Shown: in pieces, positions 9,624 through 45,836 of the stretch | Numbering within the stretch: the stretch's first letter is position 1 | Layout: every line of letters starts with the position of its first letter | Source of the DNA: Diadema antillarum | Lineage: Eukaryota | Direction: 5' to 3' | DNA: 64,000 bases | Assembly: GCF_040938485.1 (NCBI RefSeq) | Contig: NW_027271164.1 | Coordinates: forward strand, 2,144,064-2,208,063 | Notes under the pieces: model-generated | What the model was told of the DNA's origin: nothing | Database searches by the model: none | Seen by the model: only the letters and a program-made list of their open reading frames with translations | Made by a program: the position numbers and the translations under genes

Positions 9624-9669
<46 letters not shown>

Positions 9670-19697: not shown

Positions 19698-19856
19698 AAA
19701 GAGCTAGAAGATGGGGATGTCGAGTTCACATCTATCGAGCTGCACACCAGTGTTGGAGTACCATCGGCCGTTCTGAGCCAAGGACCCCGGAAGTCTCCGA
19801 CCACGAGACCCAAGTTTAGGGTCTATACTCACCATGGCACGGTGTCTGGAACAAAG
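19698..19856 (+). CDS. PARP4: PARP4-like exon A (KELEDGDVEFTSIELHTSVGVPSAVLSQGPRKSPTTRPKFRVYTHHGTVSGTK).
   Basis: tcgacag acceptor and AAG|GTAGTA donor. Phase 0 to 0, in frame with the next exon. Weak similarity to the pre-helical region. Confidence 0.4.
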
Positions 19857-20178
19857 GTAGTACTTACAGTTTGGCATGCATACTGTATGCACACTATGGG
19901 ACTTTAGTGACGATTACTTGATGAACTGCTATTATTTCACTATCTTTTAGAGATGATACTCGCTCCGACTGAACGAACATTGACATCGAAATATTTTAAA
20001 CCATTTCTGAGATAGAAATATCAGTAGAGTAACATTTCTAAAAACAAAAACAAAGAAAACAGGAAATGCGTATTCATGAAATACTTTTTAGTACATAAAT
20101 TGTTGCTCTTTTTGGGGTGGCATTTTAAGACATTAGAATAGTATAATCCTAAAGTCAGGAATTTGGCACTTTTTGCAG

Positions 20179-20334
20179 GATGAAAATTCTGGGACGAAAT
20201 CGAGTCGCTTTGCTCAGGCTGCCCCAGCCGCCCTGAAGATGTACAATGAGGAGTACAAAGCGTGGACGTCTAAAGGGATGACAAGAACGAAGAAAATGCT
20301 GTCACGTTGGCTTGGATCCAACATTCTGACCAAG
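20179..20334 (+). CDS. PARP4: PARP4-like exon B (DENSGTKSSRFAQAAPAALKMYNEEYKAWTSKGMTRTKKMLSRWLGSNILTK).
   Basis: ttttgcag acceptor and AAG|GTAAGA donor. Phase 0. Confidence 0.5.
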
Positions 20335-21045
20335 GTAAGACAGAGGACGAATACTTTCAAATTCGCATTCCCGATCTCATTTCCCTTCTCCTTCATTAGT
20401 TGGTTTTAGATTGGTTAATTACCTCTTATTTCTATCGTATAATCAACTACTATGTACTCAAGATCATTTATGATTTTATTACATTATGTTACGGTCTGTG
20501 ATAGAAAAAAAGAATCACTTTGAGATCAATTGAATTGAATTGAACTGAATTGAATAATTCTCCGCATATCTGCTACTTTTCTCTTTCTAAAATTGCCGGT
20601 CTCGTTTCTAATCCTGGGCAGTGACCGAACTACTCCTAGGGTTGGTAGAGATGAATTGATATGTATTTAACGTTTTGATTGTAAAATGAAACATTGATAA
20701 TCATGATGCTGATGAAAAATGTTATCAGATAGTGGAAATATGATAATGTGAGAACAGCTAGAGTCTGTATCCTTCCCCTTTCCCGATTTTATGTACATTG
20801 AAGTACAACTGCTGGGGTAGAAAACTGTAGCGATAAATTTTGATCAGGAGCTATGAATCGTATGACAAACCAAATGCAGTGACCTAGTCGACATAGGCGA
20901 TGAAAAACGTACATAATGAAGGTTATATGACCAAGTTGTGTTTATTCAGTGACTTTCCACTGCAGCTACAGGTAGGTATCTTGTCAAATGCTGAACACAT
21001 TGTCTGATCGTGTCGCAACAAGAACGTTACTTTTTAACTCGACAG

Positions 21046-21183
21046 CGCCTCCTCGAGTCGCAGACAGCGAGTGGGGAAGTATCCGAAGCAGTTGCCATGC
21101 TAGCAGACAACTTGTGGAAGGAAGCGATGGGCGAACTCTCCAGGATACTCACTGTACCCATCAAGAACATCCCACCGGGAAAG
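21046..21183 (+). CDS. PARP4: PARP4-like exon C, PARP regulatory helical domain (RLLESQTASGEVSEAVAMLADNLWKEAMGELSRILTVPIKNIPPGK).
   Basis: Aligns to the PARP alpha-helical domain (…MIWAEALGHLEHMLLKPVNRISL…). cgacag acceptor and AAG|GTAAAG donor. Confidence 0.7.
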
Positions 21184-21645
21184 GTAAAGCCATTGAACTA
21201 CAATCCCCTTAAAAGGCTCTGCTATAGAACTCAAGTCCATCACCATGATGGACTTACCTTCCCCACCCATCTCCAACCGCTTTATTTCCCAGCTTGTTTG
21301 ATTCTATTTCAGCTTTTGGTTTATTTTCGATGTTTTAAAAGATCGTTATAACTTCCCTGGCTATACGTTATCACTTATACCTCCGTGGGAACTTCACACA
21401 AAAATTTGTTGCAAGATATTATATATTTTTGATGAAAAGCGTCTAGTTAGATTTTATGTGTAACACTATGATCAAGATTATTCACAAGGAAATGGGAAAT
21501 TACAACGACACTGCTAAAACATTAAGTAAACAATTTTTTTCACGTAAAAATTAGATACGAATTCAACATTCATGTCTTTACGATGCCCGTCATTAGTGAT
21601 TGAGCAGTATTACAATTTTGCCTGGTTTTCGTGACATGTCTACAG

Positions 21646-21828
21646 GTTGAGAAAGCGGAGGCAGTCCTGCTTCAAATCAAGCGAGCCTTGCTGAGCCCCG
21701 ACTCTGAGGACGCAGCGTCGATCGAAGCTCTGAGCAAGCAGTTTCACGAGTTAATTCCACACAGGAACGACGACACACATCAGCTTGACAGTATGAGAAA
21801 GGTTGCCGTCAAGCAAGACCTTTGTCAG
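21646..21828 (+). CDS. PARP4: PARP4-like exon D, helical domain (VEKAEAVLLQIKRALLS…LSKQFHELIPHRNDDTHQLDSMRKVAVKQDLCQ).
   Basis: EFYRLIPH-like motif (FHELIPH) and KKADLCQ-like motif. tctacag acceptor and CAG|GTATTA donor. Confidence 0.75.
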
Positions 21829-22364
21829 GTATTATGCGATGTGTTTACAAAGAACAGTTTAAACAACTCCTAAACGCATCTACTTTATCTCGAGATAGGC
21901 TCTTTGATTAAACCCTTATGTATCTCATGTATACTCTACCGACGACTTTTGAGGTATCCTTTGCTAAAAGTGTGTATGAGTTCTATCAAACAATGATATA
22001 TTTTGTTATACAATGAATGTCTGAGATGATTGTTAGCTGTTTACTCATAAGGCACAAAGCATAACAAATAAGAGATTGCGTTTGAGCTTATTTCAGTTTA
22101 TTTTTTTTACATACTAGTAGTTAGTATGAGTGTGCTTTAACAAATGAATGAAATCATTACATGTGAGCGATCATTGTTATGAAAACATCAGGCTATGATA
22201 TTCACGAATCTGAGCTCTTCAGCAATAAAGTCTATCCACTGCTTGCAGACAGTTTAGTCAATGTCTGTCACAAAACCACGAATGACTTGTGTTCCATATC
22301 TAAGCGATAGCCTAAATTGTCAGTGATAAAAACTCTTTCATACCGCAACCTATCTCGGCTTCAG

Positions 22365-22525
22365 CTAATCCTCGATGTGATCAACGTGAATGAGGCCCTA
22401 GGATGGAAGAAACGGCCGACTGCTGAGTCTAAATACCGCGCCATGCGCTGCTTCATTGAGCACCTAGACCAGGACCATCCTGAGTACCGCCAAGTAGAGG
22501 AACTGGTCCTCTCAACTGCACCCAG
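22365..22525 (+). CDS. PARP4: PARP4-like exon E (LILDVINVNEALGWKKRPTAESKYRAMRCFIEHLDQDHPEYRQVEELVLSTAP).
   Basis: KYRALRC.IEH motif preceding the catalytic domain. ttcag acceptor and CAG|GTAAAA donor. Confidence 0.75.
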
Positions 22526-22912
22526 GTAAAACAAGGAGCGATAATCGGTGTCTACTCGACCTGTTCATTGGTCTTTCTCATCTCATCTCTGCGACACGAA
22601 TAATAAGTTTAATGGATGTATATGAAATATCAAGATGGTTTGATAGGTAAAAACTCTTGTAGTGAATATTCCACTGAAACTTTAATTTCGTATTCTGTTT
22701 ATTTCATTTTGCGTTATAAATGATAGCATACCCGAAGGTAAGATTCTATCTGCAAGATTGCCCTGAACGACCATAATACATTATTTTTATATCAGAAACT
22801 ATGTTGAAGTTGAAACAAATAATTTCCCATTTTGTAAGGAATCATATACGTCTTAAATCATTAATATTATCGTTGCGATAATAAAATATTTTTATTGTTT
22901 ATATCACTGCAG

Positions 22913-23050
22913 ACACCAGGATTTGACGATTTTGAATATCTTTGCTGTGAGTCGGGCGCTGGATGAGTTCAAGTTTGATCGTTCTATCGGCAACGAACGG
23001 CTTCTTTTCCATTCGTCCAAGGCTCGCAACTTTCTTGGCATCCTATCACG
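22913..23050 (+). CDS. PARP4: PARP4-like exon F, start of the catalytic domain (RHQDLTILNIFAVSRALDEFKFDRSIGNERLLFHSSKARNFLGILSR), carrying the catalytic His.
   Basis: LL(W/F)HGS-type motif, here HSS. ctgcag acceptor and CG|GTAACT donor. Phase continuous. Confidence 0.8.
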
Positions 23051-23390
23051 GTAACTCATGTCAAATCATATCAGTCTATATTCGGCGAAAGAATATGAAT
23101 TTGAAAAGAATGCTCACTTTTGTCAACATTGCACACCACTATAAAGTTATGACGATTAACCCTTTCCAGTTGATATCTGACTAATGCAATAATAAACAGA
23201 TATGGTTTGCTCTACCGTGCAATGACTTTAGTTCTGTTGTTTTAACAGTCACTCGTTTAGCTTAGTTCCATTTCTATGATCTAGTAGCCTATTTCTGCCT
23301 TTGTCAATATGAGTTTTCGACTAATTGGTTAACTGTATGTCAAAGTATGGATTTATTATAATGAAACATTGCAATGGTTAACTCTTTCAG

Positions 23391-23489
23391 TGGTATCCTA
23401 CTCCCGAAAATTGTGGTGGAGATGTTTGGAATCGAAAGATGGGACGCAGGGATGCTGGGAAGTGGAATTTACTTCGGAGATTCAACAAG
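23391..23489 (+). CDS. PARP4: PARP4-like exon G (GILLPKIVVEMFGIERWDAGMLGSGIYFGDST), carrying the catalytic Tyr.
   Basis: G.GIYF(A/S)D motif. ctttcag acceptor and AAG|GTAAGA donor. Confidence 0.8.
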
Positions 23490-23699
23490 GTAAGAACTCT
23501 CTATAAGGGATCAATTTCAAAATAACTTGGTTTGGGTTCGCATAATACGCAATCAAAATGACAATAACAGGCATGTGTAGTTGAAATTTCACAGTTTGCT
23601 TGAGCATACAGAATAATATTCCTTAGCGTAAGCAACAGTTAAACAAATACCTTAGATTTTAAATCAGATGATGAAAGTTTGTTTGGGTCTAACCGTGTT

Positions 23700-24440: not shown

Positions 24441-24719
24441 AACGATATATGTTTATATGTTCATATCACCATGAATACTTGTCTTACTCTGAAAGGATAA
24501 ATTTTAGCACAACACATGAGTTCGGTTGAGTTTATCTTATACAGTATATATACACACGGATTAAAAGCGTGCTGTAGCCGGACAGCTGTTTCGTGAAACT
24601 TTTAGTGCCCTTGATGGTTCTTAAATCTACGGGAGAATAATTAAAAGTTTTAAATGCAATATAAGATGCACTGTTCTGGGGAGAATTAGATTTTGGCATC
24701 ACAATTTCAGTATAATAAG

Positions 24720-25293: not shown

Positions 25294-26989
25294 TGTAATC
25301 ATCAGATGACGTGAATTGAATACTAGAGGACAGAGCTGTTGGGGCAAGGTCATGCAAGAGTTGAATGTAAAGATTAAGGTTTGTTTCCTCTTTTTTCCTT
25401 GAGCTGATCAACCTGTAGAGAAAAATAGAGAGTTTCCCTATTGTAACAACCTAATACCATTGTGAAACAATCTGTTCTGACTGACTTGCAGTCGATTTAG
25501 TTGACCCGCCGAGTGACCAGTCCTCTAGATTACACTAAAGTAGTGCAAGTTAAGTGGGGCTGAATTAGGGTTTTGTATGACAATGGGAAGGTATCCTTAT
25601 CAATGAACTTTCTTATACTCTTGGCTGCATGAAAGACTTTGAGCATTTTGCTTCTAACACGTTCAATTTGTGGAGTCCATGTTTGGTGTTAATCGAGAAT
25701 GACCCCAAGATATTTACTTTTTACTATTTATTTTTAAAATAACGCAAATTCATTTTAGATCCAATCAACATAAACTGACATTTGTTTACGTTTAACAATA
25801 ATAAATGGCTTTTGAACCATCTAAAAGAAGTGACATTAGGTCATTATTGTTTTGTCGACGGGAGGGGGGGGGGAGGTAAAAAAAGCCTATCATCTACGCA
25901 TTAGGAGAGCAAACACTTCTTAAGAGATTTATGCAAATAGTTAAGAGTGAGGATCAATAAAAGAGGCCCAACATTGATTATGTAATGATATTTGGTCAAA
26001 TCCAATATCTCAATTTCTCAACTGCGTTAAAGGATAAGGGCCATAAAGCAGTGTGTTCACTTCGACCCCATTTTACAGAGCAAACACACACACCTTTTGA
26101 TTTGCCCCCCCCCCCCCAAAAAAAAAAAAAAAAAATCTGATGAAATCACAATACTATTAATTTCAATTTGCATAGATTCTGCCTTGGATTTTCCCCTTCT
26201 ATAGGCGTGGTGGTGGCGACGGCGGCGGCGGCAGCGGCGGTGGTGGTGGTGGGGGGAAAGGTGTGCCATTGATCTTGACCCCCCCCCCCCCCCCCCCCAC
26301 ACACACACAAAGTGAAAGACGTTCAACTTTATACATCATGACTCCACTTGTATCTACATAGACATATCCATAGTCTTACACATAGTTTATAAAAATACTT
26401 GAATGAATGAAAATGAATTACATTATCTGTATTTTTTTATTAGTAATGCGATTTTTTATGATGTGTCACAGAGTTCATGGCAGACCTCTGCGGGCAATCC
26501 TCGCGTCTCAACCGGAACAATTTGTGACCATGCTCAAGGGCTGTCATACCTTTCTGGGAAATGAATTTTAGAGAGGGATATTAGAGCCTTGCTTTGTGTT
26601 GTATAGTTAATAGGTGGGGCGTGACACTTTTATTCATACATTATTGCGTTCATGCCTGCCCTGCCGCAAATACGGAGCATTAAGAACGGACAGAAAGCCT
26701 CGAAGTATTACGTAATTTGTATAGAAATCGTCTCGCTAAGTCCATTGTCCACTCAAGTCTTTTTGAACTTCAATCCCCGATTGCACACATATTGGAAGAA
26801 TACTTGGCGTCAATGTCCCTTTTCAGTAATGATTAAGGTCTACCAACAGGTGTATTGAAACTGCTACCACAATTCAAAACATGTTGTATGCATAATCACT
26901 GAACATCTGAGAATGAGGTTTCGAGGGGTTAAACCTTCATTTTGTTGATACACTATTAGCGCTTGATCTGGACAATAAAGGGTTTGGTC

Positions 26990-29215
26990 TCCGGGCGGAA
27001 GTTTTGTTTTTGTCGTTGTTGTTTTTTGTTTTTTGTTTTTTTAAATCACCCAACATAATGTGGTTGTGTTGTTTTGGACGCTGTCCTCTCTAGATTTTAG
27101 AGAAAACGGATGGTAAGGAAAGACGAGGCTACCTTGCGAATCATTCATGCGGAACACCAAGAAGTCAATAAAAGAGATACAACCCCCGGATGGTCGGGCG
27201 GAATTTTCCCTGGTGGTCGCCATAAATGGACGTACACTTCAAGTCCCTCCGACCTCCGACACACCCCAGTAATTTTCACAAACTCTATTAAACTTGAAAA
27301 ACCGGAGATAAAAATAAATGATAATGTAGTGAAATATCAACAAAGTCAGAAATTTTTAGGTCTCACTTTTGATCAAAAATTAACATGGAATACACACATA
27401 AATGATGTTGTTGATCGTTGTAAGCCCAAAATAAATATTTTAAAGAGTCTGGCGGGAACTACATGGGGTAACTTTTCTAAAACCCTTCTTATGGTGTACA
27501 GAGCACTGATCAGGTCTCTTCTCGACTATGGATGTGAAGCTTATGAGTCCGCCTCCGAAAGCTCAAAAAACCCACTGGATTCCATCCAATATCAGGCTCT
27601 TCGAGTATGTGCTGGTGCAGCTCCCGCCACATCTCTAGAATCCCTTCAAGTAGAAATGGGAGAACTCCCCTTATGCATCAGAAGAAAGATGCTGACTACA
27701 AAATACCATGCGTCTTTGACGAGAATCGCAAACCATCCGGTATCACAAAGCACAAAAAACTGCTGGCAATACGAGTATATGAAAGAGAAAAATTCACGTA
27801 AACCTTTCGGAGTTAGAATTCAAAGCGCAAATATCACAACAAAACTCGAACCTCTCACTCCCCCAGAAATCCCCTTCTGGCACTTAAGCGAAATCAAAAT
27901 CTCCTTAGAGCTAACTGAGTGGCTCAATAAAGACGACAACCCCTTAATTCAAAAACAATGGAGCCTAGAACTGATCAATTCCAAATGGAAACATCAACTT
28001 CACATATTTACTGATGGATCCAAATTGCCAAACGAAGGCAATTCAGCTGCCGCCTTTTACGTGCCATCACTTCGTTATTCCCAATGCAAAAGATTACGTG
28101 ATCACACATCATCATATCGAGCAGAACTATCTGCAATCATCCTCGCCCTAAACTGGCTTGAGCAATTAGACCTCCACACAGGAGCTGTCATATTCAGCGA
28201 TTCGCTGAGCTCACTTAAAGCCATCAAATCACAACCGTACGACGACAACTTCATCACTGAAATCAGGACAATTGTCACTCGTCTAGAATATAAAGGCACG
28301 GACATCTCACTCGAATGGATTCCGTCACACTGTGGAATTCACGGCAATGAAGCCGCTGATTCCCGAGCTAAAAAAGCCTTGACGAAACCTATCGAAATCT
28401 ACAACGACCTTAGTTTTTCAGAGATAAAGTCAGTCCTTGTAACTAAGTATAAAGCAGAATGGCAAAGTAAGTGGAACAACTCAACCTCCTTTCTAAAAAC
28501 CATCCAATCATCTGTAAATTTTCAGCCATTCACATGTCATCTTTCCAGACAACATGAAATGATTATACACAGGTTGAGAATGGGCTGTCTCGGCCTTAAC
28601 TATGATTTAGCAAAAATAGCAAAACACCCCACAGGAAACTGCCCCTATTGCCCCACCCCTGAAACAGTTAAACATTTTCTAATAGAATGCCCGAAATATA
28701 CAATAGAAAGAGCCATGTTAATGGCAGAAACCAACACAAATCGTGACTCTGATATTATGAAACTTTTAGCGTCTCAAAATCGAAATATTCAAAATTCCAT
28801 AATCACATTTGTGTACAGGACAAATCGTTTGAGTCAAGGATAAGCTTGACGAACCTTAAAGATTACAATGTAGTATTTTCATAATGAAGTGTAAAGTAGA
28901 AAATTTATTTTGTAAAATTTGTAAAACAGTGAATTATTGATATTATGTGAATGTGTATTTGTATGATCTCAGATGTATACATGAGTAGGTATGTGTGTGT
29001 ATATAGGCATATACACACATGCATATTACTGAGTATATTATATGCCGCAGTATGTTAAGTATTACTGTATATTAGTATTTGGAAGATTAGTGTATGTCTT
29101 ATTATATCAACATTAGAATATGTTGAAGGTATAGGCCTACCACCAGTGCACCTATCTTCATCATTTGCACCCTTGATTCTGCCCACAAATGTTCGCTACA
29201 TACATATTAAAAAAA
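26990..29215 (+). mobile_element. 5'-truncated non-LTR retrotransposon (LINE) in the PARP4-like intron. It keeps the RT C-terminal region, RNase H, a CCHC knuckle and the 3' UTR.
   Basis: The 577-aa ORF at 27110-28843 has RT motifs (FLGLTFDQKLTWNTHI…, YRALIRSLLDYGCEAY), an RNase H motif (HIFTDGSK…YRAELSAI…IEWIPSHCGIHGNEAAD) and a C-terminal Cys/His motif (CPYC…HFLIEC). The upstream RT motifs and any ORF1 are missing. Confidence 0.75.
27110..28843 (+). CDS. Retrotransposon pol-like ORF (partial RT, RNase H, CCHC).
   Basis: See the mobile element above. Single uninterrupted ORF. Confidence 0.75.
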   Translation: MVRKDEATLRIIHAEHQEVNKRDTTPGWSGGIFPGGRHKWTYTSSPSDLRHTPVIFTNSIKLEKPEIKINDNVVKYQQSQKFLGLTFDQKLTWNTHINDVVDRCKPKINILKSLAGTTWGNFSKTLLMVYRALIRSLLDYGCEAYESASESSKNPLDSIQYQALRVCAGAAPATSLESLQVEMGELPLCIRRKMLTTKYHASLTRIANHPVSQSTKNCWQYEYMKEKNSRKPFGVRIQSANITTKLEPLTPPEIPFWHLSEIKISLELTEWLNKDDNPLIQKQWSLELINSKWKHQLHIFTDGSKLPNEGNSAAAFYVPSLRYSQCKRLRDHTSSYRAELSAIILALNWLEQLDLHTGAVIFSDSLSSLKAIKSQPYDDNFITEIRTIVTRLEYKGTDISLEWIPSHCGIHGNEAADSRAKKALTKPIEIYNDLSFSEIKSVLVTKYKAEWQSKWNNSTSFLKTIQSSVNFQPFTCHLSRQHEMIIHRLRMGCLGLNYDLAKIAKHPTGNCPYCPTPETVKHFLIECPKYTIERAMLMAETNTNRDSDIMKLLASQNRNIQNSIITFVYRTNRLSQG

Positions 29216-30394
29216 AAGATGAATAAAATGAATATATTTGGATTTGGATTATATCGGAATATTGTTCTCCACACGCTCAGGCATGACGGTCGCCACCATC
29301 CTTCTCGAGTTACCTAGGGCGCACGCCTGAGAAGCCTGCGAAACGCACTTCGCCGGGTTGGTAAGACAGAACCGAGGGTGGCAACGTGGCCGTTTTGACT
29401 GAGCGAGGAAAACAATACAATTTTTATAATTAAAATGAAAATATGGTTGGAATAAAACAAATATGGATATTATGATAGAATTTGAATTTGTTAAGAAATA
29501 TTGATGATTAATCTATAGGGAAATATATATATTATATAGTCTGGCAAAAATAGTCAAAATTATGACTGATTGCCATTAAACCTAAAACAACAACGACAAC
29601 AACAGCAACCCATTGACACACCCAAGGAACAAACACACACACACACACACACCATCACAACCATCCACACCCACGCCCAGCAACCACACACCACACACCA
29701 CCACCACCACAATCTCGAACAAACCCAGAGGCAAAACACATTGTACAGTCCTCTCCAACACCATCATGCACCACCACCACCTCTACCACCACTATCACGA
29801 ACAACAGTACCAGAGACACGCAATATCTCACCTTTCATATACATTCACTTTACATTACTCTCCAGCTCAATGACGAGTTACATTGTTCAGTCTTCTCCAA
29901 CAGTTATTTGTTAACGATACAACAAAATCAACCTAGGATTGTTTATTACATGTTTTCATTTGTGACGGATATAGAACACATGATTATAGTCAGATTACCT
30001 TAATAAGGGGACGTTAAATCCGGGTGTTGAATCAGAATCTGGAATTCGCAACTCTTGAATTCTTAAGGAATATTCATATTCAGCACTCTCGAAATAGGAC
30101 AGAAATTGTTAATAATATGATAATAATTCATTTATATTATAATAGTATAATATAAACGAATTTACCTTCTTTTAGGGATGCTGAATCAGAATATGGAATT
30201 CGCAGCTCTTGAATTCTTAAGGATTTTGAGATATTCAAGATGGCAGTCCAAATCATCCATATTCGTTTTCAGCACTCTTGAAATAGGATAAAATCATTAT
30301 TTGGCGGATGGTAAAACATGGTTCAGCCCCTGACACCAAGGCTAAAAAGAATACAATTAGAAGAGTCATACATTACTGCATATTGAAATACAGC

Positions 30395-30716: not shown

Positions 30717-30900
30717 TACCAGCGCCAAATACTCTACTGCGGGAGAGTTTACCGGTACGCGTTTTATGGCTGTCAGTAACGTGGCGCTTGGAAGAATTAA
30801 AGACGTTTACGAGAAGAGGCTAGACCTTGAGAGCGCCCCCATTGGTTTCGACAGTGTACATGGCGTCCGGAAATCCAAGGAGATCGAGTCGTTTTTTAAG
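30717..30900 (+). CDS. PARP4: PARP4-like exon H, catalytic (STSAKYSTAGEFTGTRFMAVSNVALGRIKDVYEKRLDLESAPIGFDSVHGVRKSKEIESFFK).
   Basis: Aligns to …LLICDVALGKCMDLHEKDFSLTEAPPGYDSVHGV. caccag acceptor and AAG|GTAAGA donor. Confidence 0.8.
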
Positions 30901-31190: not shown

Positions 31191-31231
<41 letters not shown>

Positions 31232-31507: not shown

Positions 31508-31545
<38 letters not shown>

Positions 31546-31753: not shown

Positions 31754-31937
31754 GAGGATGAGTACACTGTGTATCAGGCCAACCAACACTGTCTCCGGTT
31801 CCTCGTCGAATTCAAACTGACTGAGAGGAACGAGGATGGACACGATGGGAGTGTGAGCTCACCGAGCGCATTGATGTCCAGTGATGATGACAGCGATGAC
31901 ACCACTGACAGCGACAGTGACGATGATTTCGAGATCG
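31754..31937 (+). CDS. PARP4: PARP4-like exon I, end of the catalytic domain with the catalytic Glu (EDEYTVYQANQHCLRFLVEF), followed by an acidic Ser/Asp linker.
   Basis: (Y)NEY(I/V)VY-type motif, here EDEYTVY. ctcaccag acceptor and ATCG|GTATAA donor. Confidence 0.75.
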
Positions 31938-32440: not shown

Positions 32441-32571
32441 ATACAACGGACATACAGGGCATCTTGTATCCAGAGGCCAGAATTAAAGCAGGTCTCACCG
32501 GCGGGGACGGGGCGGGCATCGAACTCAAGGACGTCCATGTCCGAGCTAAAATAATAGATCTTGCTGCTGAG
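32441..32571 (+). CDS. PARP4: PARP4-like exon J1, start of the VIT domain (DTTDIQGILYPEARIKAGLTGGDGAGIELKDVHVRAKIIDLAAE).
   Basis: Aligns to …LVPLEDVHIKGRIIDTVAQ. tctaaag acceptor restores the phase-1 frame. GAG|GTAAGT donor. Confidence 0.65.
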
Positions 32572-32861: not shown

Positions 32862-33080
32862 GTAACGGTCCTCCAGAAGTACGAGAACATCGGGAGAGAC
32901 TCGGCTGAGACGAGGTACGTCTTTCCGCTGGACGAATGCGCCGCTGTATGTGGATTTGAAGCATACATCAATGGTAAACACGTGGTGGGCGTGGTCAAAG
33001 AGAAGGAAGAGGCGAAGACGTCTTACCAGAAGGCGGTACGGGAAGGCCATGGAGCGTATCTCATGGAGGAGGAGGCATCG
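32862..33080 (+). CDS. PARP4: PARP4-like exon J2, VIT domain (VTVLQKYENIGRDSAETRYVFPLDECAAVCGFEAYINGKHVVGVVKEKEEAKTSYQKAVREGHGAYLMEEEAS).
   Basis: Near-identical to the vertebrate PARP4 VIT core (…AAVCGFEAFINGKHIVGEIKEKEEAQQEYLEAVTQGHGAYLM…). caccacag acceptor and TCG|GTAAGA donor. Confidence 0.85.
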
Positions 33081-33538: not shown

Positions 33539-33750
33539 AACATTTTCTCCATCACCGTTGGGAACCTTCCACCAGGGTCGAGTGTGATCGTTCGAATCAC
33601 CTATGTTACCGAGCTCGTGGTTGAAGGGGATCGGATCGCTTTCAATCTCCTCGGCAGCGTGGCGCCGTGGAAGAGGAATGAGATTTTGGCGGCAAAGTAT
33701 GACGAAAAAGGCCAATCGGTGACCGCCGTGCGCCAAAACGACCGTGACAG
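33539..33750 (+). CDS. PARP4: PARP4-like exon K, VIT domain (NIFSITVGNLPPGSSVIVRITYVTEL…SVAPWKRNEILAAKYDEKGQ…).
   Basis: Aligns to FTVSVGNLPPKAKVLIKITYITEL…ATVAPW. tgacag acceptor and CAG|GTATGT donor. Confidence 0.85.
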
Positions 33751-34010: not shown

Positions 34011-34092
34011 GAACGAGTCATTCGTGGCTTCGATTGAAATGCCAGGGAAGATCAGGCGGGTAGACTGCCCGACGCACACCGTCAAATTTCAG
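34011..34092 (+). CDS. PARP4: PARP4-like exon L (RNESFVASIEMPGKIRRVDCPTHTVKFQ).
   Basis: Aligns to …SIEMPYVIEF…; tttacag acceptor and CAG|GTAATC donor. Frame continuous. Confidence 0.7.
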
Positions 34093-34789: not shown

Positions 34790-34927
34790 AGGAAGAATGA
34801 CAGACATGTATCCGTTGCCATGAGCGACGGAGACCGGCTCATTGATGGTATCCAGCTCCTTATCGACATGGAGGATGCCCACAAACCACGGCTTTGGCGG
34901 GAAAGGCACCCTGATGGCGGAAAAGAG
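34790..34927 (+). CDS. PARP4: PARP4-like exon M (RKNDRHVSVAMSDGDRLIDGIQLLIDMEDAHKPRLWRERHPDGGKE).
   Basis: Aligns to …KAVISTMEGSS…LPRMWVEKHPEKESE. ttacag acceptor and GAG|GTAAGA donor. Confidence 0.7.
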
Positions 34928-35403
34928 GTAAGAAAATAGCCGATTCATGGGATCTTCTCACTTGAGAATGACAGTATGGGTTATTCAACCGCATACCTCG
35001 CTAGTGTGTACGTTTTAGTGATTCTAGTTTGTAATTGATTTGAATGCAGTATAAATGTAAATTTTAGTTTCCTTTAGAGCTTCAGGTGGAGCCCGCAGGT
35101 GGAGAGGCACAATTTTGAATCTAGTTTCATATAAAATGGTCACGTCAGTTTATAACATAAACGTATGAAAGTTGTTTCTAGTGGAGGTGACGAAAATTTA
35201 GCTAGATAAACCATGTAGCTTTTCAAAAGAAAGTTTACAGATCTCTCTGATAATGTTGACATTTGTTACTTTCTTGTGAGGATATTTGCTCCTTTACGGA
35301 AGCATTGTTCCACACATTTTTTCTTGAAAAACCAAATCACATCGGGATAAAAGTAGCAGTGGGAATAAGTTCACAAGATATGTTGTTATTTTCAACCCAA
35401 CAG

Positions 35404-35590
35404 GCTTACATGGTGGTGTTTTACCCAGAATTCCAAGTGAGTGCAATCAAGAGCCCGGAAGTTGTCATTATGTTGGATCGCTCTACGTCAATGAAGGGAG
35501 AACCTATGAAAGACGCAAAGAAACTCGTTCACATGATCCTGGAAAATCTACCCCCGGGAAGTCGATACAACCTCATCGTCTTCGGAAATG
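35404..35590 (+). CDS. PARP4: PARP4-like exon N, start of the vWA domain (AYMVVFYPEF…VVIMLDRSTSMKGEPMKDAKKLVHMILENLPPGSRYNLIVFGN).
   Basis: MIDAS-like D.S.S motif (DRSTSM). Aligns to …VIICLDCSSSMEG. caacag acceptor and ATG|GTATTT donor. Confidence 0.85.
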
Positions 35591-35842
35591 GTATTTGACA
35601 TTCCCTAATTCCTGATCAAATTATTTGTTGTACCTTTTATTACGTTGTTGATGTAAAGCAATGGTACATTTAACGCAGTCTTCCTTGATAATGCAATGTG
35701 GATTAAATATTCAAACGAGTTCAATTTCATTCCAAAGAATTGTTTATTACAGATCTAAAAAAAAAAATGAATGAAAAAAATGTGATTAAAAGTGTGCATG
35801 GCTGAACGACACTTATCCTTCAACATATCCTCTGTGTCACAG

Positions 35843-36110
35843 ATTTCGAAGAGCTGTACCCCGCCAGCGTGGTTGCCAGTGACACAAATATCCGAAACAC
35901 GGAAACATACCTGAAATCAGTCAGCTGGGAACGTGGGGCCACTGAGGTGTGGCGCCCTCTACGGGCAATGGCTCTCTTGGCGTCGGATGATGCTCGTCTC
36001 ATCCGGAATGGATTTCTCATCTCCGATGGTCACGTGAGTAACGAGCAGGATACCCTAATCGAAGTGGCCACCAACCGACACATCAACCGCCTCTTTACCT
36101 TCGGTGTCAG
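35843..36110 (+). CDS. PARP4: PARP4-like exon O, vWA (DFEELYPASVVASDTNIRNTETYLKSVSWERGATEVWRPL…GFLISDGHVSNEQDTLIEVATNRHINRLFTFGV).
   Basis: Aligns to …NILLVSDGHLQDESLTLQLVKRSRPHTRLFACGIG. tcacag acceptor and CAG|GTAAAA donor. Confidence 0.85.
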
Positions 36111-37058
36111 GTAAAAGATATGGAATACGACTATATTTATGATACAGAGTGAACTAAATTGTGTTCAGGTCTACCGCGGCAACGTAATTGTACAGTGAAT
36201 CCAATTTTGCGTCGCTTACATCCATCACAAGCAAAAGGAAAGTTGCTTCTAGTCATGTAGCAAGAGAAATAAGTGCAGTGTACATTTTGTCTTTTCGCAA
36301 AAAGAAAGCAATGTCTATAACTGATTAAAAACAAGAACTCTCAACCAGTCCTGACAACAGACAGACTCTCATGATTTTAGAACATGGCGAAGGCTCTAGA
36401 CTCTGACGAATTTTTAAGAAGGTTGATATTGTGATCATTTCCATTGCAAGAATCTGATGCAGCTACATTGTACGCCTCAACTAATTTATTCAAGATGGAA
36501 TCTTTTTCGACTTTAATATTGTAACGGACCAATGCTAAACACTTTCTTGGATGAAACTCGAAAATTCTAAAACGGAGGTAAGCATTGGTTTTTTATCCTG
36601 AGAAATCAAAGCAACGACAAAAGGAATAAAGTTGATCTTTCCTTAATCAAGAATTTTACCCAAACATGTTTCTTGTATGTGTTAAGATGATTATAAGGAC
36701 AAGCTTAACAAGGCTGATTGATTTTGAGAGCATGTGAACCTTCTTGAGCTTATTATCGTTTCTGCTGTTTAATTATTTTTCCTCATTTCATTTCCTATTT
36801 CTCTCATTTTCATTATCATCATTATCATTATCATTATCATTATCATTATCATTATCATTATCATTATCATTATCTTTTTATATAGACCCAGACTTGCTAA
36901 TCATGAGTGCATAACATAAGGGGAGGGGTGATTATCCATCCGTGAAAGCATTTTTAGTGTTGTGTCATATTGACATGGCAAAGTATGTTTTTCTCACTTA
37001 AATATCAATTAGTTTGATTATTTTCTGTTGTCGGTCACACTAATACTTCACATTGCAG

Positions 37059-37158
37059 CTCTGATTCTAACCGCCATGTGCTGCGAACCCTTGCCGACAC
37101 GGGTGGTGGAGCTTACGAGCAGTTTGATCCGAGGAGCAAGTCAACTTGGGAAGCAAAA
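37059..37158 (+). CDS. PARP4: PARP4-like exon P, end of vWA (SSDSNRHVLRTLADTGGGAYEQFDPRSKSTWEAK).
   Basis: Aligns to STANRHVLRILSQCGAGVFEYFNAKSKHSWRKQ. attgcag acceptor and AAA|GTAGGT donor. Confidence 0.8.
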
Positions 37159-37735: not shown

Positions 37736-37924
37736 GTGAAGGCCCAGGTGCGGCGATCGTGTCAGCCAGCGGCGACGTCCATCAGAGTTGACTGGAGGGC
37801 AAAAGGGCCGGAGAGTCACGTGACCCTGACGAGGAAGCAAGTCATTCAAGCCCCTTCACAGATCGCATCTCTTTTCACTGGCACCAGACTTGTGCTCTAC
37901 GCTCTGGGACCTGACATTGCTGAA
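37736..37924 (+). CDS. PARP4: PARP4-like exon Q (VKAQVRRSCQPAATSIRVDWRAKGPESHVTLTRKQVIQAPSQIASLFTGTRLVLYALGPDIAE).
   Basis: Aligns to IEDQMTRLCSPSCHSVSVKWQQ…QVPSLFLNDRLLVYGFIP. ttctcag acceptor and GAA|GTAAAT donor. Confidence 0.75.
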
Positions 37925-38528: not shown

Positions 38529-38609
38529 GTTGTTCTTAGCGCCGACATTGAAGGTCGAGAAGTAACGTGTAAGGTGACGTCGGAGAACTGCGCCACCAAC
38601 GCCGGTCTG
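38529..38609 (+). CDS. PARP4: PARP4-like exon R (VVLSADIEGREVTCKVTSENCATNAGL).
   Basis: ccttcag acceptor and CTG|GTGAGT donor. Phase 0. Positionally matches …ATLCALIQEKEFRTMVSTTELQKTTGTM. Confidence 0.6.
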
Positions 38610-39587: not shown

Positions 39588-39770
39588 ACGCTTCATCGCC
39601 TAGCAACGAGGGGAGTGGTCAGGGACTGGGAGGTTGGATCTGTGCACGCGGATAGGTTGGAAAATGACGCCATGATGGATGACGTCCGGCGAATGCTGGT
39701 CCAACTGGGCATCGAGTTCAACATCATTTCTCCTCTAACGAGTTTTGTCGCAATTGAGGAGCGATCTGAG
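39588..39770 (+). CDS. PARP4: PARP4-like exon S (TLHRLATRGVVRDWEVGSVHADRLEN…LVQLGIEFNIISPLTSFVAIEERSE).
   Basis: Aligns to IHKLAARALIRDYEDG…ITQFTSFVAVEKRDE. ctggaag acceptor and GAG|GTAGAG donor. Confidence 0.8.
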
Positions 39771-40380: not shown

Positions 40381-40500
40381 GATGACACAAAGAAAGACGA
40401 TCCATCGATGTCAAGTCTACTGGCCGAGATGAGTCCTGGGGGCCGTGACACGCAGCATGGAACGTGGCACAGCCAGCCTGCCTCCACGGGCACGGAATCG
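40381..40500 (+). CDS. PARP4: PARP4-like exon T (DDTKKDDPSMSSLLAEMSPGGRDTQHGTWHSQPASTGTES).
   Basis: ctgacag acceptor and TCG|GTATGG donor. Phase 0 to 0. Low-complexity linker region. Confidence 0.5.
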
Positions 40501-41055: not shown

Positions 41056-41205
41056 AGTGATGCTATCACTAGACTGGAGGATATTCTGTCTCGAGCACAG
41101 GGAGCGCAGAATACTTTCTCCTTCGTGACCGCTGAGAACCAATACCAGCGTGCGATGGAGCTCGCCTCGGAGTCTCTGCCTCCAACGCACCCTTGTGTGC
41201 AAGAG
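41056..41205 (+). CDS. PARP4: PARP4-like exon U (SDAITRLEDILSRAQGAQNTFSFVTAENQYQRAMELASESLPPTHPCVQE).
   Basis: tcctcag acceptor and GAG|GTAACC donor. Phase 0 to 0. Confidence 0.5.
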
Positions 41206-41896
41206 GTAACCCTTCAGATGAATTTTTGTCGTCATTTTACCATACAATTTCCACAAGAAAGACAACGAACACAGAAAATTGAAGATAAGGTAAATAATTT
41301 AATTTTGAAACAACGGTGACACGGGAAACCAAATCTACATCATGGACCCTGACCCGCTAGCCTGGTGACTCCATGAAGTGTGAAGGCTGGCCCGGCTATA
41401 CTCGGATATATTCGAGAATTTCCGTAACGATCGACTTGTTTTAAACTTAACACTAATCTCCATGTCAGTAGGGCTTACACACACAGCCAAAGAATCTCGG
41501 CTCAAGTTGACCATTGCCGATGAGCATACGCTTCGATGCACATATTCGCTGACTAGCGCTATTCGTGGTTTTCGAACGTACCCCGGTGGGTATTGAATGA
41601 TTTAATTGGGCCATCCATTTCTTCCCATGTCTAAAACCTCTGCAAAAACCATCGTCAATGGCTTTTGTGGTGCATTCTGCAAATAATTTGGATCAATGTA
41701 GCGTTAGGAAGACTCGAATACATCCTGATTTAAACAAACTTCATTAAATAGTGCAACGGTATGAAAGACTATATAAAATTTCAGCCATTCATATCGCACA
41801 AGGCTACTTATATGATCACATTAACTGGAAAAAAAATGCTGAGAATAATGGTGCGATTTATCGCCATGAATGCATGGTTGTCTTATTATCGTGTAG

Positions 41897-42056
41897 GCAT
41901 TCCTGGCAGTGGCTAACTTCTACCTTCACATCAAAGGCGAGGCGACCAAGGCTAAGGATGTTCTTGATGACATCCTCCAACGAGTCAAAACGTCAACATC
42001 CGCTGAGATTGATCGAAGGCTCCCTAACATGTCTAAGATGTTAGTATTCGAGTTCT
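41897..42056 (+). CDS. PARP4: Possible PARP4-like exon V (AFLAVANFYLHIKGEATKAKDVLDDILQRVKTSTSAEIDRRLPNMSKMLVFEF).
   Basis: tgtag acceptor and T|GTGAGA donor. Its phase (1) does not match the best acceptor of the following large exon, so membership is uncertain. Confidence 0.3.
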
Positions 42057-42583
42057 GTGAGAAGGGGTGAAGACGCATGCGCAATATTCAGTTGAGCAAT
42101 CTGCTGTAGCAGCTAAAATATCTGACAGCAAGCTTCCTTGAGAAGCCTTGTGTTATCTTTTCAAATGATTGTGTCGATAAAAGCAGATTGCGGTTGGAAA
42201 CTCCATAGAACATGTAGAATGTTTATGCAAACTACCGGTCTGCCCGTTCGTAAGTTGATTTATATCTATATAAAGAAACACTGCTCTTTATTATGCTCTC
42301 TTTTGTTCCTTACGCTGTCTCGTAGCCTCTGTAAGATGTACCAACACCGCAAAGCGTACGTTTCATACAGTTTGTTCGATTTCTGCGCATTGTGTATTTA
42401 GTAAAAAGGAGCAACTAAAGTACATCTAATTATTGGTGGCAGATTTTAGATTTGGTTGTAACATCAATTGATTTCGAAACCCCTTCCTAGCTCTTTTAAA
42501 AGTTTTATTCTGTTCGCTCTTCATCGCGATGAACTGGCATAATTATATTTTATTGTTGTTATTTTTGTTAATCCCTACCACAG

Positions 42584-44330
42584 CTGTCAATGTGTTATTG
42601 ATGAAGGATTCCAAGGGAGAGAGCGGCAGCTCAAACCACCGAGTGAATCACAAAAACACGATCGCATGGTTCGCATAGAATCTCGAGAAACACAGCAGCC
42701 CTGCGATGCTCCGATACCATCGGCTAAAGCCATGGACGCTACACAGACTCTAAAGACGGAGGAGCTAGTTTCCCCAACACTCCGAGATGTTGATATGGAT
42801 CAACTTGCAGATCAGCTGGAATTGTTGTCTCCGACGGAAGACACACAAAAATCATTTCTTGCACATGCAGAAGAGGCGTGTGCGCTCAAAGAATCACCTG
42901 TCGACGTCATGGAGCTTTCGGAGGAGGTTTACTCTGCCGATGAGCCTGAACCTGCCTACATGGTAGAATCTATTCAAGAAATTCAGCTAGTTGAAGATGT
43001 AATGTCTCCTGTCCTCTGCTTAGCTGAACCAGCTAGTAGGTCGTTGGCCTTTTCATATGAAACCGAAGCTGCATACCTTGAGCCCGTGGAAGAACTTCAG
43101 ATCTGTGAGGAGGTACAGGAAGTGTTGTCTCCTGTCCTGGAATCGAGCGTTGATTCGTTACCTTTGATGCTAGCAGAAGTTGAGTCTGTCACAGAGCTGA
43201 GGAAAGAAGTGGCAGAACCTATGAGATTGGAGCAACGCATGGAGAAAAGGTTAGAGTTGGCAGAACCTGTATTAATGGCGAAAAAGTTAGAGTTGACAGA
43301 ACCTGTAATGCTTCAAGAACGAATGGAGACACGGGCAAAAATGGCAGAACCTGTTATGATGGCGAAAAAGTTAGAGTTGGCAGAACCTGTGATGCTGGAG
43401 GAGAAATTGGCGTTCGCAGAACCTGTGATGCTGGAAAAGCATGTAGAAGAAAAGTTAGAGTTGGCAGAACCTGTAATGCTTCAAGAAAGAATTGAGACAC
43501 CGTTAAAGATGGCAGAACCTGTAATGATGGCGAAAAAGTTAAAGTTGGCAGAACCTGTAATGCTGGAAGCTCGAATGGAGACACGAGTGAAAATGGCAGA
43601 ACCTGTAATGATGGTACAACACATGGAGGAAAAAATGGCGTTGGCAGAACCTGTGATGATGGAGCAACATATTGAGGAAAGTTTAGAGTTGGCAGAACCT
43701 GTAATGATGGAGGAAAAGTTGGCGTTGGCAGAACCTGTAATGCTTCAAGAACGAATGGAGACACGGGTAAAAATGGCAGAACCTGTAATGATGGTACAAC
43801 ACATGGAGGAAAAATTGGCGTTGGCAGAACCTGTGATGATGGAGCAACATATTGAGGAAAGTTTAGAGTTGGCAGAACCTGTAATGATGGAGGAAAAGTT
43901 GGCGTTGGCAGAACCTGTAATGCTTCAAGAACGAATGGAGACAAGGGTAAAAATGGCAGAACCTGTGTTGATGGCGAAAAAGTTAGAGTTGGCAGAACCT
44001 GCGATGCTGGAAGAACGAATGGAGACAAGATTAAAGATGGCAGAACCTGTAATGATGGTACAACGCATGGATGAAAAAACGGCGTTGGCACAACCTGTTA
44101 TGATGGAGGAAAAGTTAGAGTTGGCAGAACCTGTGATGATGAAGGCACATATAGAGGAAAGATTAGAGTTGGTAGAAGCTCCCGAGTTGGATCAAGTACT
44201 TGATGCTACCCCAGCTTTGGAAGCCGATGACATCCTGCCAAAACAACAGAAGCTCGCTCCAGCAAAGGAAGATCTCGAAAAGACAGAGGCCTTCGACATA
44301 ATCACAAGAATTTTGCAAGTAGGGCATCAG
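42584..44330 (+). CDS. PARP4: PARP4-like giant exon W. Acidic N-terminal part, then about 30 tandem 12-aa repeats of the form (K/E)(L/M)(E/A)LAEPVM(M/L)(E/Q)E(K/R), then …ILQVGHQ.
   Basis: Continuous ORF (42666-44396) with ccacag acceptor and CAG|GTAAGG donor at 44330. The 36-bp DNA repeat has a 180-bp higher-order period. Confidence 0.6.
43230..44160. repeat. Coding minisatellite: 36-bp unit (gcagaacctgtaatgatgg…), about 25-30 copies. The 180-bp higher-order units are near-identical (for example 43560-43740 versus 43740-43920).
   Basis: Read directly. It produces the long artefactual antisense ORF 43354-44091. Confidence 0.85.
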
Positions 44331-44735
44331 GTAAGGAGCAAGAGCAGTGGGAAAAAAAATCGATTTCAAATTGCAGAGTATGTGCACCCATCTTAAGTCA
44401 TTAACATTGGAACAAACAGAAGCAGAGCTAGAAATTCCTTCATGAATTGTATCTTCCTAACAAGAATCAGTTCACGGAGTAACCGTCATACTTTACTCTT
44501 TGTACCACCGAAACAATAACCATGTAACCATCGTATTCAGTACCATGGCTCACTTAGTGCAACTCTGGCTCCCATGATCATTCATGAGCTGTACCATCAC
44601 GTCTGCTTCGAACAGCAAATGCTCTCTAAATATTTCATGACTGCAGAAGTTTTTCATTTACCGCATATAGACAGTGCACATAATATTGAATGAAAATACG
44701 AATCCAAACTTGATTATCCTGTACCATTCATGCAG

Positions 44736-44919
44736 AAGAACGTGACTTTATATATAACTTTCACCACGTCCCGTCACTATTATCAGGACGAGCAGTCCCG
44801 CTGGTGTTGGGAGGTCGCTGACATCGAAGGAGAATTCGGCATCGACTGCAGCAAAGTAACCGATGCACTTCAGCAGCCTGACCAATACCTGGACATGGAT
44901 GACACGCTGCTTGAAACTT
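44736..44919 (+). CDS. PARP4: PARP4-like exon X (KNVTLYITFTTSRHYYQDEQSRWCWEVADIEGEFGIDCSKVTDALQQPDQYLDMDDTLLET).
   Basis: Resembles …IQHWQDAVPWTELL… of the PARP4 C-terminal region. The acceptor at 44735 or the alternative at about 44784 are both in frame. T|GTAAGT donor. Confidence 0.5.
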
Positions 44920-45066
44920 GTAAGTTTCTCTTCCCGCTTCTTCCCCTGTTAACTTATCAAATTCAACTGGGTCCGAGTGTCAGAGAGAGAGAGAAATTAT
45001 GGACAAGTCGTTACAAATCAGCGAGTAGTGAAAGAGGATCATATGAAAAATACAAACACACACACA

Positions 45067-45105
<39 letters not shown>

Positions 45106-45573
45106 CACCACAAATCATACACTTCATTGAAGACTGCTGGGCACTTTCAGCTTGAATATAGTGTTTATGGTATAGACTCTAGACCCAATAGCTAAAATAG
45201 ACGTAAGATATAAGACGTTGTTCAAATGCACTTATCAGGTCATAACTTGAAAACGTCTTTTTGTGTGTGTACGGGAGAATGTGGTCTTCCAAATGTTGAA
45301 AGCGACACCCTCCAATAAAACTGATTCACATTAGACTATGAAAGAATTTTGCCCTTAGTCTCGCTACTGATCTACTTTACATTGCTTGGATGATTCGGCA
45401 GTCAACAGGTGACAAACAAAATGTACCATGATGTGCTTCCATCCTGTTTCATTGATAGAGCAAGAAAGTCATTTTGCCATAAGTCTGACAAGCGACTTGG
45501 GCAACCTTAGCAGCAAAGGGTGACCAACTGTTAACTCCAAGTTTGACTCTCTGTTGTCTTCGTCCTGCTATAG

Positions 45574-45836
45574 GGATGTCAAGCCTCGGCCTCATCAAGA
45601 GGATTGTTGCAACTCTCCTTGTCACCGGCCTGCTCTCATGCCTGGAATCGACACTCCACTCAACCGACATCGACGTCGACAAGGTTCGTTTGTCGTGGGA
45701 GAAGACTTACCAACCGCCGTCTGAGTTATGTACCCTGGCTGTGAAGTGTGGTCTGGACGTAACCTGGAAGGACGCCCTCACCGTATTTCAATTGGAGAAC
45801 GCCCTAGATGACATCATCAATATAGTTTCAAGTTAG
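45574..45836 (+). CDS. PARP4: PARP4-like terminal exon (WMSSLGLIKRIVATLLVTGLLSCLESTLHSTDIDV…LENALDDIINIVSS, then stop), an MVP-binding-like C-terminus.
   Basis: Aligns to …GRECLLDLIATMLVLQFIRTRLEKEG… of the vertebrate vPARP C-terminus. ctatag acceptor completes the phase-1 codon. TAG stop at 45834-45836. Confidence 0.65.

Follow-up and report, generated by a model that had tools for sequence, protein, structure and literature searches.

A PARP4-like gene with a half 14-3-3 module and a long Glu/Met-rich repeat linker in the sea urchin Diadema antillarum

The DNA analysed here (the window) is a stretch of 64,000 nucleotides (nt) from contig NW_027271164.1 of the sea urchin Diadema antillarum. 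It has a GC content of ~0.38, contains microsatellites and shows short coding blocks split by non-coding DNA. Its + strand carries a gene of the vault-PARP (PARP4) family with 27 exons spread over 27.6 kb and a coding sequence (CDS) at 18205-45836. All 26 introns are GT-AG, and the exons form one unbroken frame of 1953 codons (a 5.9 kb CDS without frameshift or stop) from an ATG at 18205, preceded by an in-frame stop at 18151, to a TAG stop codon at 45834-45836. The predicted protein is acidic (isoelectric point 4.85), with a length of 1953 amino acids (aa) and a mass of 219 kDa. From sequence comparison, this region is very probably the single-copy locus of a functional echinoid PARP4 ('PARP4-like') gene of a diadematoid urchin close to Diadema setosum. 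It is an ordinary intact gene of an already known kind, annotated in the congener D. setosum.

Searches with 12 orthologues (tblastn) and with a hidden Markov model (HMM) of 26 orthologues gave collinear matches at ~19.7-39.8 kb on the + strand and no matches on the - strand. Junctions were selected by taking all frame-compatible GT/GC...AG pairs between neighbouring blocks and scoring the joined peptides with the 26-orthologue HMM and a simple splice-site score; the same junction scoring, or inspection of the DNA, placed the small exon 20 as well as the exons at the 5' end and at the C-terminus. Three splice sites are weak (31938, 39588 and 42040). A preliminary description of this sequence had placed the coding blocks of a complete gene of at least 26 exons at 19698-45836 on the + strand. 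This placement agrees with our model, in which 19698 is the exon 2 acceptor and 45836 the end of the stop codon; the gene is not complete between these positions, however, as a further coding exon (18205-18318) lies upstream.

Exons 1-3 encode a WGR-like region. Exon 1 (18205-18318, aa 1-38) holds the ATG and the start of this region and has the donor CAG/gtagaa; it is 97.4% identical to that of D. setosum, with the same Met, and shows a weak collinear HMM match (18250-18354). Exon 2 (19698-19856, aa 39-91; 94.3% identical to D. setosum) has collinear tblastn matches to five orthologues and aligns with starfish '...CRVFTHTGMLSEMK'. Exon 3 (20179-20334, aa 92-143; acceptor tttttgcag/GAT, donor AAG/gtaaga) ends the region and matches the HMM with an independent E-value (iE) of 2e-5. 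The helical regulatory domain (HD, PARP_reg) follows in exon 4 (21046-21183, aa 144-189; iE=5.7e-9), exon 5 (21646-21828, aa 190-250; iE=3.5e-17) and exon 6 (22365-22525, aa 251-304; iE=9e-16), the last of which also starts the ADP-ribosyltransferase (ART) domain; exons 4 and 6 were set by junction scoring. The ART domain continues through exon 7 (22913-23050, aa 304-350; iE=2.5e-14) with His337-Ser338-Ser339 (LLFHSS), exon 8 (23391-23489, aa 350-383; iE=5e-14) with Tyr377 (GSGIYFGDS), and exon 9 (30717-30900, aa 383-444; iE=1.9e-22, junction total score 158), which lies beyond a 7.2-kb intron holding a retroelement. Exon 10 (31754-31937, aa 445-506; iE=1.1e-7) supplies Glu447 (EDEYTVY) and then an acidic Ser/Asp linker; its donor (TCG/gtataa) is weak, with the junction as in D. 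setosum.

The VIT domain begins in exon 11 (32441-32571, aa 506-549; iE=6e-9, junction scoring), has its core (AAVCGFEAYINGKH...GHGAYLM) in exon 12 (32862-33080, aa 550-622; iE=1.8e-42) and ends in exon 13 (33539-33750, aa 623-693; iE=1.2e-23). Exon 14 (34011-34092, aa 693-720; iE=8.4e-5; 97.6% identical to D. setosum) and exon 15 (34790-34927, aa 721-766; iE=1.2e-7, junction scoring) lead to the vWA domain, encoded by exon 16 (35404-35590, aa 767-829; iE=3.4e-22) with the metal ion-dependent adhesion site (MIDAS) D791-R-S793-T-S795, exon 17 (35843-36110, aa 829-918; iE=4.3e-25) and exon 18 (37059-37158, aa 918-951; iE=4.5e-13). A conserved post-vWA region starts in exon 19 (37736-37924, aa 952-1014; iE=1.6e-13). 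Exon 20 (38529-38609, aa 1015-1041), defined by the best site pair (ttcag/GTT ... CTG/gtgagt), is 100% identical to D. setosum, and exon 21 (39588-39770, aa 1042-1102; iE=7.9e-21) encodes the last block conserved in all PARP4 (...FVAIEERSE) behind a weak acceptor (ctggaag/), again with the junction as in D. setosum. Exon 22 (40381-40500, aa 1103-1142; phase 0-0, ctgacag/GAT ... TCG/gtatgg; 96.7% identical to D. setosum) encodes a linker. Two simple repeats yield spurious open frames beside real exons: an (AC)n microsatellite at 45052-45112 in intron 26 and a (TC)/(TTA)-type repeat at 36773-36916 in intron 17.

The two parts of a half 14-3-3 module are encoded by exon 23 (41056-41205, aa 1143-1192; ...YQRAMELASESLPPTHP..., with collinear tblastn matches to six orthologues) and exon 24 (41897-42039, aa 1193-1240). 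Exon 25 (42584-44330, aa 1240-1822) lies in a 617-codon open segment and encodes an acidic region followed by ~22 Glu/Met-rich 'LAEPVMM' repeats. The C-terminal tail is encoded by exon 26 (44787-44919, aa 1823-1867; tatcag/GAC ... CTT/gtaagt, phase 0 to 1; 97.7% identical to D. setosum), with tail motif 1 (HQDEQSRWCW), and exon 27 (45574-45836, aa 1867-1953 and TAG), with motifs 2 and 3 (IKRIVATLLV; CGLDVTWKD) in a possible MINT-like helical domain. The frame break previously described between the coding blocks V and W disappears when the phase-2 donor at 42040 (AAGAT/gttagt) that ends exon 24 is joined to the phase-2 acceptor at 42584.

The closest known relative is XP_072174381.1, protein mono-ADP-ribosyltransferase PARP4-like [Diadema setosum], of 1909 aa. 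It was the only strong match in an exhaustive HMMER search with the last exon (1.8e-40, 91% identity, residues 1824-1909). The two proteins have the same start (MSLQEPRSE...), the same end (...VSS) and the same domain order, and are 93.4% identical overall and 96-100% identical in the domains. The window protein is 44 aa longer, with a repeat copy number of 22 against 19. Exon junctions are identical except for one tandem acceptor at exon 16: the D. setosum model takes an AG located 18 nt further upstream, adding LFSSQQ (6 aa), whereas the window has TG at that site (35386-35404, vs 26053-26071 of the D. setosum locus), so that only the downstream acceptor is usable. The loci align along their whole length (GCA_964275005.2), with the same carboxylesterase neighbour upstream on the opposite strand; exons are 93-100% identical and introns 84%, with 73% of intron length alignable.

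The synonymous divergence (dS) between the two genes is ~0.11-0.15; a dS of ~0.13-0.15 marks them as belonging to different species. The ratio of nonsynonymous to synonymous divergence (dN/dS) is 0.20 for the whole gene, which argues that the gene is functional. By part, it is 0.05 in VIT-vWA, 0.13 in the HD and ART domains, 0.15 in the 14-3-3-like part, 0.24 in the acidic pre-repeat region, 0.34 in the repeats and 0.31 in the tail, showing purifying selection on every part of the gene.

Pfam searches of the spliced protein recover PARP (PF00644; 2.1e-27, aa 290-450), VIT (9.8e-37, aa 534-644) and VWA_3 (2.7e-17, aa 785-938). A rough concatenation of the + strand blocks at 21-40 kb gives, in order, PARP_reg (26.0 bits), PARP (1.4e-26), VIT (1e-35) and VWA_3 (2.5e-15). 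The helical-catalytic-VIT-vWA order of the preliminary description is thus borne out, with PARP_reg (PF02877) slightly under threshold: the D. setosum protein scores 26.7 bits, and the cut-off is 26.8. Several bona fide PARP4s are likewise borderline for this profile (S. purpuratus, for example, scores 24.8 bits). Against the PARP4 orthologue HMM, the three helical-domain exons score 31.7, 58.9 and 54.2 bits, and the HD region is therefore orthologous.

The H-Y-E triad and the DRSTSM MIDAS motif recognized earlier are all present, as His337, Tyr377, Glu447 and D791-x-S793-x-S795. In the 120 orthologues listed (of 468 homologue matches), the triad His and Tyr are each conserved in 120/120 and the Glu in 119/120, and D791, S793 and S795 fall in invariant columns of the orthologue alignment. 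The residue following the catalytic His is Ser in 95/120, Ala in 24/120 and Gly in 1/120. The H-S-S sequence had been singled out as a substitution that may affect nicotinamide positioning; Ser at this position is instead the PARP4 family norm, and gives no ground for expecting nicotinamide to be bound differently than in other PARP4s. The VIT domain had also been called almost identical to that of vertebrate PARP4. This applies to the core motif only (~22/25 residues match the orthologue consensus), whereas the whole VIT exon is 51-52% identical to vertebrate proteins and 52-62% identical to invertebrate proteins by tblastn.

Assignment to the vault-PARP (PARP4; PARP clade 5) family is upheld: every one of the 120 listed homologues is PARP4 or PARP4-like, and the protein falls inside the echinoderm PARP4 group in a neighbour-joining (NJ) tree of 1075 conserved columns, where it pairs with D. 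setosum, then S. purpuratus, then starfish. The best listed homologues are ~44% identical and come from echinoderms, amphioxus, hemichordates, corals and molluscs, all of them metazoan PARP4. Human PARP4 (ARTD4, 1724 aa) has WGR-like, HD, ART (H-Y-E), VIT and vWA domains in the same order, followed by a long low-complexity linker and a helical C-terminal domain, the MVP-interaction (MINT) domain, with which the window tail has three short ordered motifs in common. Identity in the conserved core is ~36-38%, and the window protein differs in having no BRCT domain and in carrying a half 14-3-3 module after the post-vWA region. The linker in the window protein consists of Glu/Met-rich repeats; that of human PARP4 is Pro/Ser-rich. 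The PARP4-like protein of the starfish Asterias amurensis (~41% core identity) resembles the window protein in its BRCT-less N-terminus, which starts ~40 aa before the same block, in its 14-3-3-like module and in a C-terminal tail with three MINT-like motifs in the same order, but has no Glu/Met repeat expansion.

Exons 23-24 (SDAITRLEDIL...YQRAMELASESLPPTHPCVQEAFLAVANFYLHIKGEATKAKDVLDDILQRV...) match the C-terminal half of Pfam 14-3-3 (PF00244, profile positions 133-192 of 223) at E=7.2e-6 for the spliced segment, whose 26.2 bits fall short of the Pfam cut-off (33.2). No N-terminal 14-3-3 half was found in the window protein, the Pfam match does not reach the full nine-helix fold, and 14-3-3 chains in the PDB match the segment only at E=0.1-1. 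Exons 23-24 are thus a 14-3-3-derived half module within PARP4, not a 14-3-3 protein; the module is absent from the domain list of the preliminary description. The half-domain occupies the same place in orthologues from amphioxus (102 bits, profile positions 122-223), Ptychodera (76 bits), starfish (22 bits), brittle star (20 bits) and D. setosum (21 bits), and coral orthologues match by BLAST. A scan of five vertebrate orthologues did not detect it.

PARP4 architecture bearing a 14-3-3 domain has been known since 2014: Perina et al. (2014; PMC4245714) reported PARP4-like proteins from amoebae, Capsaspora, amphioxus (Branchiostoma) and S. purpuratus to which a 14-3-3 domain is appended. The window protein resembles this type in having PARP-VIT-vWA followed by a 14-3-3-related segment. 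Its 14-3-3 match is weaker, however, the annotated splice removes the would-be last helix, and the protein does not end at the module but runs ~710 residues further, through the repeats and tail. Lineage-specific domain swaps (14-3-3, ubiquitin-like, MINT) seem to be concentrated in the C-terminal part of PARP4. Pfam ubiquitin matches five of 30 scanned orthologues (best E=1.7e-24), which thus have a ubiquitin-like domain, and ubiquitin-like sequence is visible after the conserved body in four gastropod PARP4 models. The PARP4 models of Amphiura and Ptychodera end in a fragment of an actin N-terminus (Pfam Actin 1.7e-10 and 2.1e-6), probably because each gene model has been fused to an adjacent actin gene; the window itself has no actin sequence.

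Two phase-2 donors fit the phase-2 acceptor of exon 25: the one at 42040 and another at 42067 (GGG/gtgaag). With either, a TGA at 42068-42070 is intronic. The donor at 42040 was chosen because, where exons 24 and 25 join, the sequence in D. setosum is ...NMSK-I-CQCV..., and it replaced 42067 (...MLVFEFCEKG before exon 25) after this comparison. Past 42040, the frame is open for nine codons (MLVFEFCEKG) up to the TGA, and the peptide would complete the last 14-3-3-like helix; of the three D. setosum substitutions in the 42040-42070 stretch, two are synonymous in the read-through frame, a possible sign of a short isoform or of alternative donor use.

The exon 25 repeat array is built from basic units of 36 and 48 nt (Tandem Repeats Finder periods of 36/48/84/180 nt), with 22 AEPV-type motifs in the window and 19 in D. 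setosum. A 247-codon antisense open frame lies over the repeats (43357-44097, - strand), as do several off-frames on the + strand; open frames overlapping the array are most likely tandem-repeat by-products, not genes.

Exons 26-27 encode ~130 residues of a fast-evolving tail. The last exon had been said to match the vertebrate C-terminus that binds major vault protein (MVP), and we compared the spliced tail with an HMM of 68 vertebrate C-termini (the MINT HMM). It scores 3.3-3.4 bits, a value reached by 3/1000 shuffles, and the only stretch that aligns is IKRIVATLLVTGLL (IKRIVATLLV) with ILRLVATLLVLQL. The unspliced last open reading frame (ORF) ranks 2 of 3468 open segments for the same HMM (E=3.2). 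With hhalign, the tail scores 27.2 (P=0.001, probability 21%, 26 columns), which 0/60 shuffles reach (maximum 23.2), and the reversed sequence scores 13.6. A phmmer search of the tail against all PDB chains, with E<=10 allowed, did not match the solved human MINT chain. The resemblance claimed earlier is suggestive: one short motif aligns, marginally (P ~0.001-0.004), and the tail does not reach significance against vertebrate MINT.

The vertebrate MINT HMM detects lamprey MINT at 92 bits; among 25 invertebrate PARP4s it gives no significant match (0/25 at E<=0.01), with only two marginal ones, at E=0.39 (Asterias) and 4.4. By eye and by alignment, three motifs of vertebrate MINT recur in the same order in the starfish tail, which is the last ~150 aa of the protein (FIQGQDGSW, IFQLVATIMA, LGFELDWGS); this tail scores 6.3 bits against the MINT HMM, reached by 0/1000 shuffles, and aligns over 118 columns with hhalign (P=0.0012). 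The counterparts in the window tail are HQDEQSRWCW, IKRIVATLLV and CGLDVTWKD. Pairwise Smith-Waterman comparison of the window and starfish tails is not significant. A profile of three echinoderm tails without vertebrates was misaligned, gave a lower score and was dropped. An AlphaFold2 model of the D. setosum tail from the single sequence is all-helical, with ten helices, but its mean confidence (pLDDT 44.5) is too low for fold comparison. A diverged MINT-like domain is plausible; whether the echinoderm tail is a true MINT homologue is a close call, in which we lean marginally towards no.

At the N-terminus, exons 1-3 are collinear with the WGR region of the orthologues, exon 3 significantly (see above) and exons 1-2 with iE of only 0.6-1. 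Pfam WGR was not detected in the window protein; the WGR domain of human PARP4 is also without the W-G-R residues (PMC10711553), and by homology with it exons 1-3 may represent a divergent WGR domain. Upstream of this region, no BRCT signal was found in the window on either strand with the orthologue HMM, a dedicated 93-sequence N-terminal HMM or permissive tblastn of 120 proteins. The proposed BRCT exon at 17199-17380 is not supported: neither the HMMs nor tblastn match it on the + strand, and its 84% identity to D. setosum is a value typical of non-coding sequence. The D. setosum RefSeq CDS begins at the same Met as exon 1, the starfish protein starts at an equivalent position, and the space upstream of PARP4 is limited by the carboxylesterase gene. 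An unannotated BRCT exon beyond that gene is very unlikely. BRCT was found in 25/30 orthologues scanned, those without it including the D. setosum, S. purpuratus, Asterias and Amphiura models. A BRCT-less PARP4 accordingly appears typical of the urchin, starfish and brittle-star lineages sampled.

Could the locus instead hold two genes, with PARP4 ending after the 14-3-3-like module at the TGA at 42068-42070 and exons 25-27 belonging to a separate Glu/Met-rich repeat protein that starts at ATG 42666? Such an arrangement would fit the in-frame stop nine codons past the exon 24 donor, the 576-aa ORF opened by ATG 42666, the S. purpuratus PARP4 model (1255 aa), which stops ~26 aa after the equivalent block, and the finding that exons 25-27 are matched by no orthologue other than Diadema. 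We nonetheless regard it as very improbable: donor 42040 and acceptor 42584 fit exactly and give one frame to 45836, the exon 25 frame is already open for 82 nt before ATG 42666, starting from a good acceptor, the D. setosum RefSeq model joins both parts, and in starfish PARP4, too, the 14-3-3-like module is followed by a tail, which carries the same three motifs. Less likely still is a copy in decay or without function whose exons remain recognisable. The absence of frameshifts and stops over 5.9 kb of CDS and the dN/dS values (0.20 overall, 0.05 in VIT-vWA) effectively refute a pseudogene, and the triad and MIDAS are intact. The features that might suggest decay are a retroelement in intron 8, which is intronic and 5'-truncated, and the three weak splice sites.

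More serious is the proposal that this is a lineage-specific, BRCT-less, 14-3-3-bearing paralogue, with a BRCT-bearing PARP4 elsewhere in the genome doing the vault job. Perina et al. (2014; PMC4245714) report an independent duplication of PARP4 in sea urchins and a 14-3-3 'third type' that includes S. purpuratus; BRCT is absent from the window, and Diadema and S. purpuratus are only 44% identical, on a long echinoid branch. Amphioxus and Ptychodera, however, carry BRCT and 14-3-3 in one protein, so that the 14-3-3 form looks ancestral and not like a side branch; in the NJ tree, the window protein clusters with the NCBI-named PARP4 of other echinoderms; and no second echinoid paralogue is among the matches listed (120 of 468). 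We consider this proposal unlikely. Several observations do weigh against our assignment of the locus to a single-copy PARP4 orthologue with the architecture described. In view of the reported duplication, a pair of paralogues may exist, this gene being one of them and not 'the' orthologue. There is no BRCT here, though most orthologues scanned have one, and PARP_reg falls slightly below the Pfam gathering score (26.0-26.7 vs 26.8). Exon 1, the 5' untranslated region (UTR) and the choice of donor 42040 over 42067 rest on homology to a RefSeq model that is itself computational. As regards vault docking, the match between the tail and vertebrate MINT is marginal, and the MVP residues that contact PARP4 are reported to be conserved only in vertebrates (Lodwick et al. 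2025), which would speak against it.

Beyond PARP4, the window contains a carboxylesterase gene (4843-12121, - strand), head-to-head with PARP4, with Pfam COesterase exons on the - strand at 6000-6629, 7291-7659, 8120-8389 (with the GESAG serine motif) and 10645-10923. The region at ~486-860 (segment 567-860 on the - strand) resembles ~11816-12121 by eye, with common peptide stretches, which suggests that it may be the first exon of a second tandem esterase copy crossing the left window edge. An insertion at ~27254-29808 in intron 8 of PARP4 is accompanied by a 580-codon open frame (27101-28840, + strand) in which Pfam recognizes RNase H (7.4e-15) and, weakly, RVT_3. To all appearance this is a 5'-truncated retroelement running in the direction of PARP4, and since the block is absent from the orthologous intron 8 of D. 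setosum, it is a lineage-specific insertion. Four non-exonic blocks (15085-15780, 49200-49780, 51100-51780 and 54930-55400) are 93-95% identical to D. setosum by direct alignment, a level of conservation equal to that of exons, compared with 84% for introns. The first lies ~2.5-3 kb upstream of the PARP4 ATG, between the divergent genes. The blocks contain no long ORF, Rfam match or tRNA, and scans of the whole window for Rfam families and tRNAs gave no matches; the blocks could represent enhancers, sequence of a promoter or UTR, or non-coding RNAs that have escaped annotation.

With PARP4 as a single gene from 18205 to 45836, the encoded protein would consist of a WGR-like N-terminus (no BRCT), a helical regulatory domain, an ART domain (H337-Y377-E447), an acidic linker, VIT, vWA with MIDAS, the conserved post-vWA region, the half 14-3-3 helical module, the long Glu/Met-rich repeat linker and a helical C-terminal domain of ~150 aa. 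By analogy with human PARP4 (PMC10711553, PMC12280208), the ART domain would carry out NAD+-dependent mono-ADP-ribosylation of the protein itself or of partners, and VIT-vWA would mediate protein-protein contacts. The BRCT domain of human PARP4, which has no counterpart here, binds vault RNA (PMC10711553). The C-terminal helical domain could act as a tether to a partner, for which the inside of the MVP vault shell, where vertebrate MINT binds, is the most plausible candidate, although this part of the scheme is weakly supported.

This model provides an exon-accurate PARP4 gene for this diadematoid urchin, with little reach beyond annotation, and corrects three misreadings (a special H-S-S motif, a hidden upstream BRCT exon and a frame break at the V/W junction). 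A wider implication depends on the tail. That it conserves MVP binding, docking PARP4 inside the vault, is possible but rather doubtful; the association between PARP4 and vaults would then predate vertebrates. Purified S. purpuratus vaults show ~200 kDa bands attributed to VPARP/TEP1 without identification (PMC550661), a size that fits the 219-kDa predicted product. Were echinoderms to dock PARP4 through a diverged MINT domain, the Glu/Met-rich repeat array would serve as a flexible tether, and the finding would be at odds with the proposal by Lodwick et al. (2025) that it was only in 'higher-order organisms' that PARP4 began to occupy vaults. Confirmation of the tail as a vault-docking domain would thus bear on when PARP4 became a vault component.

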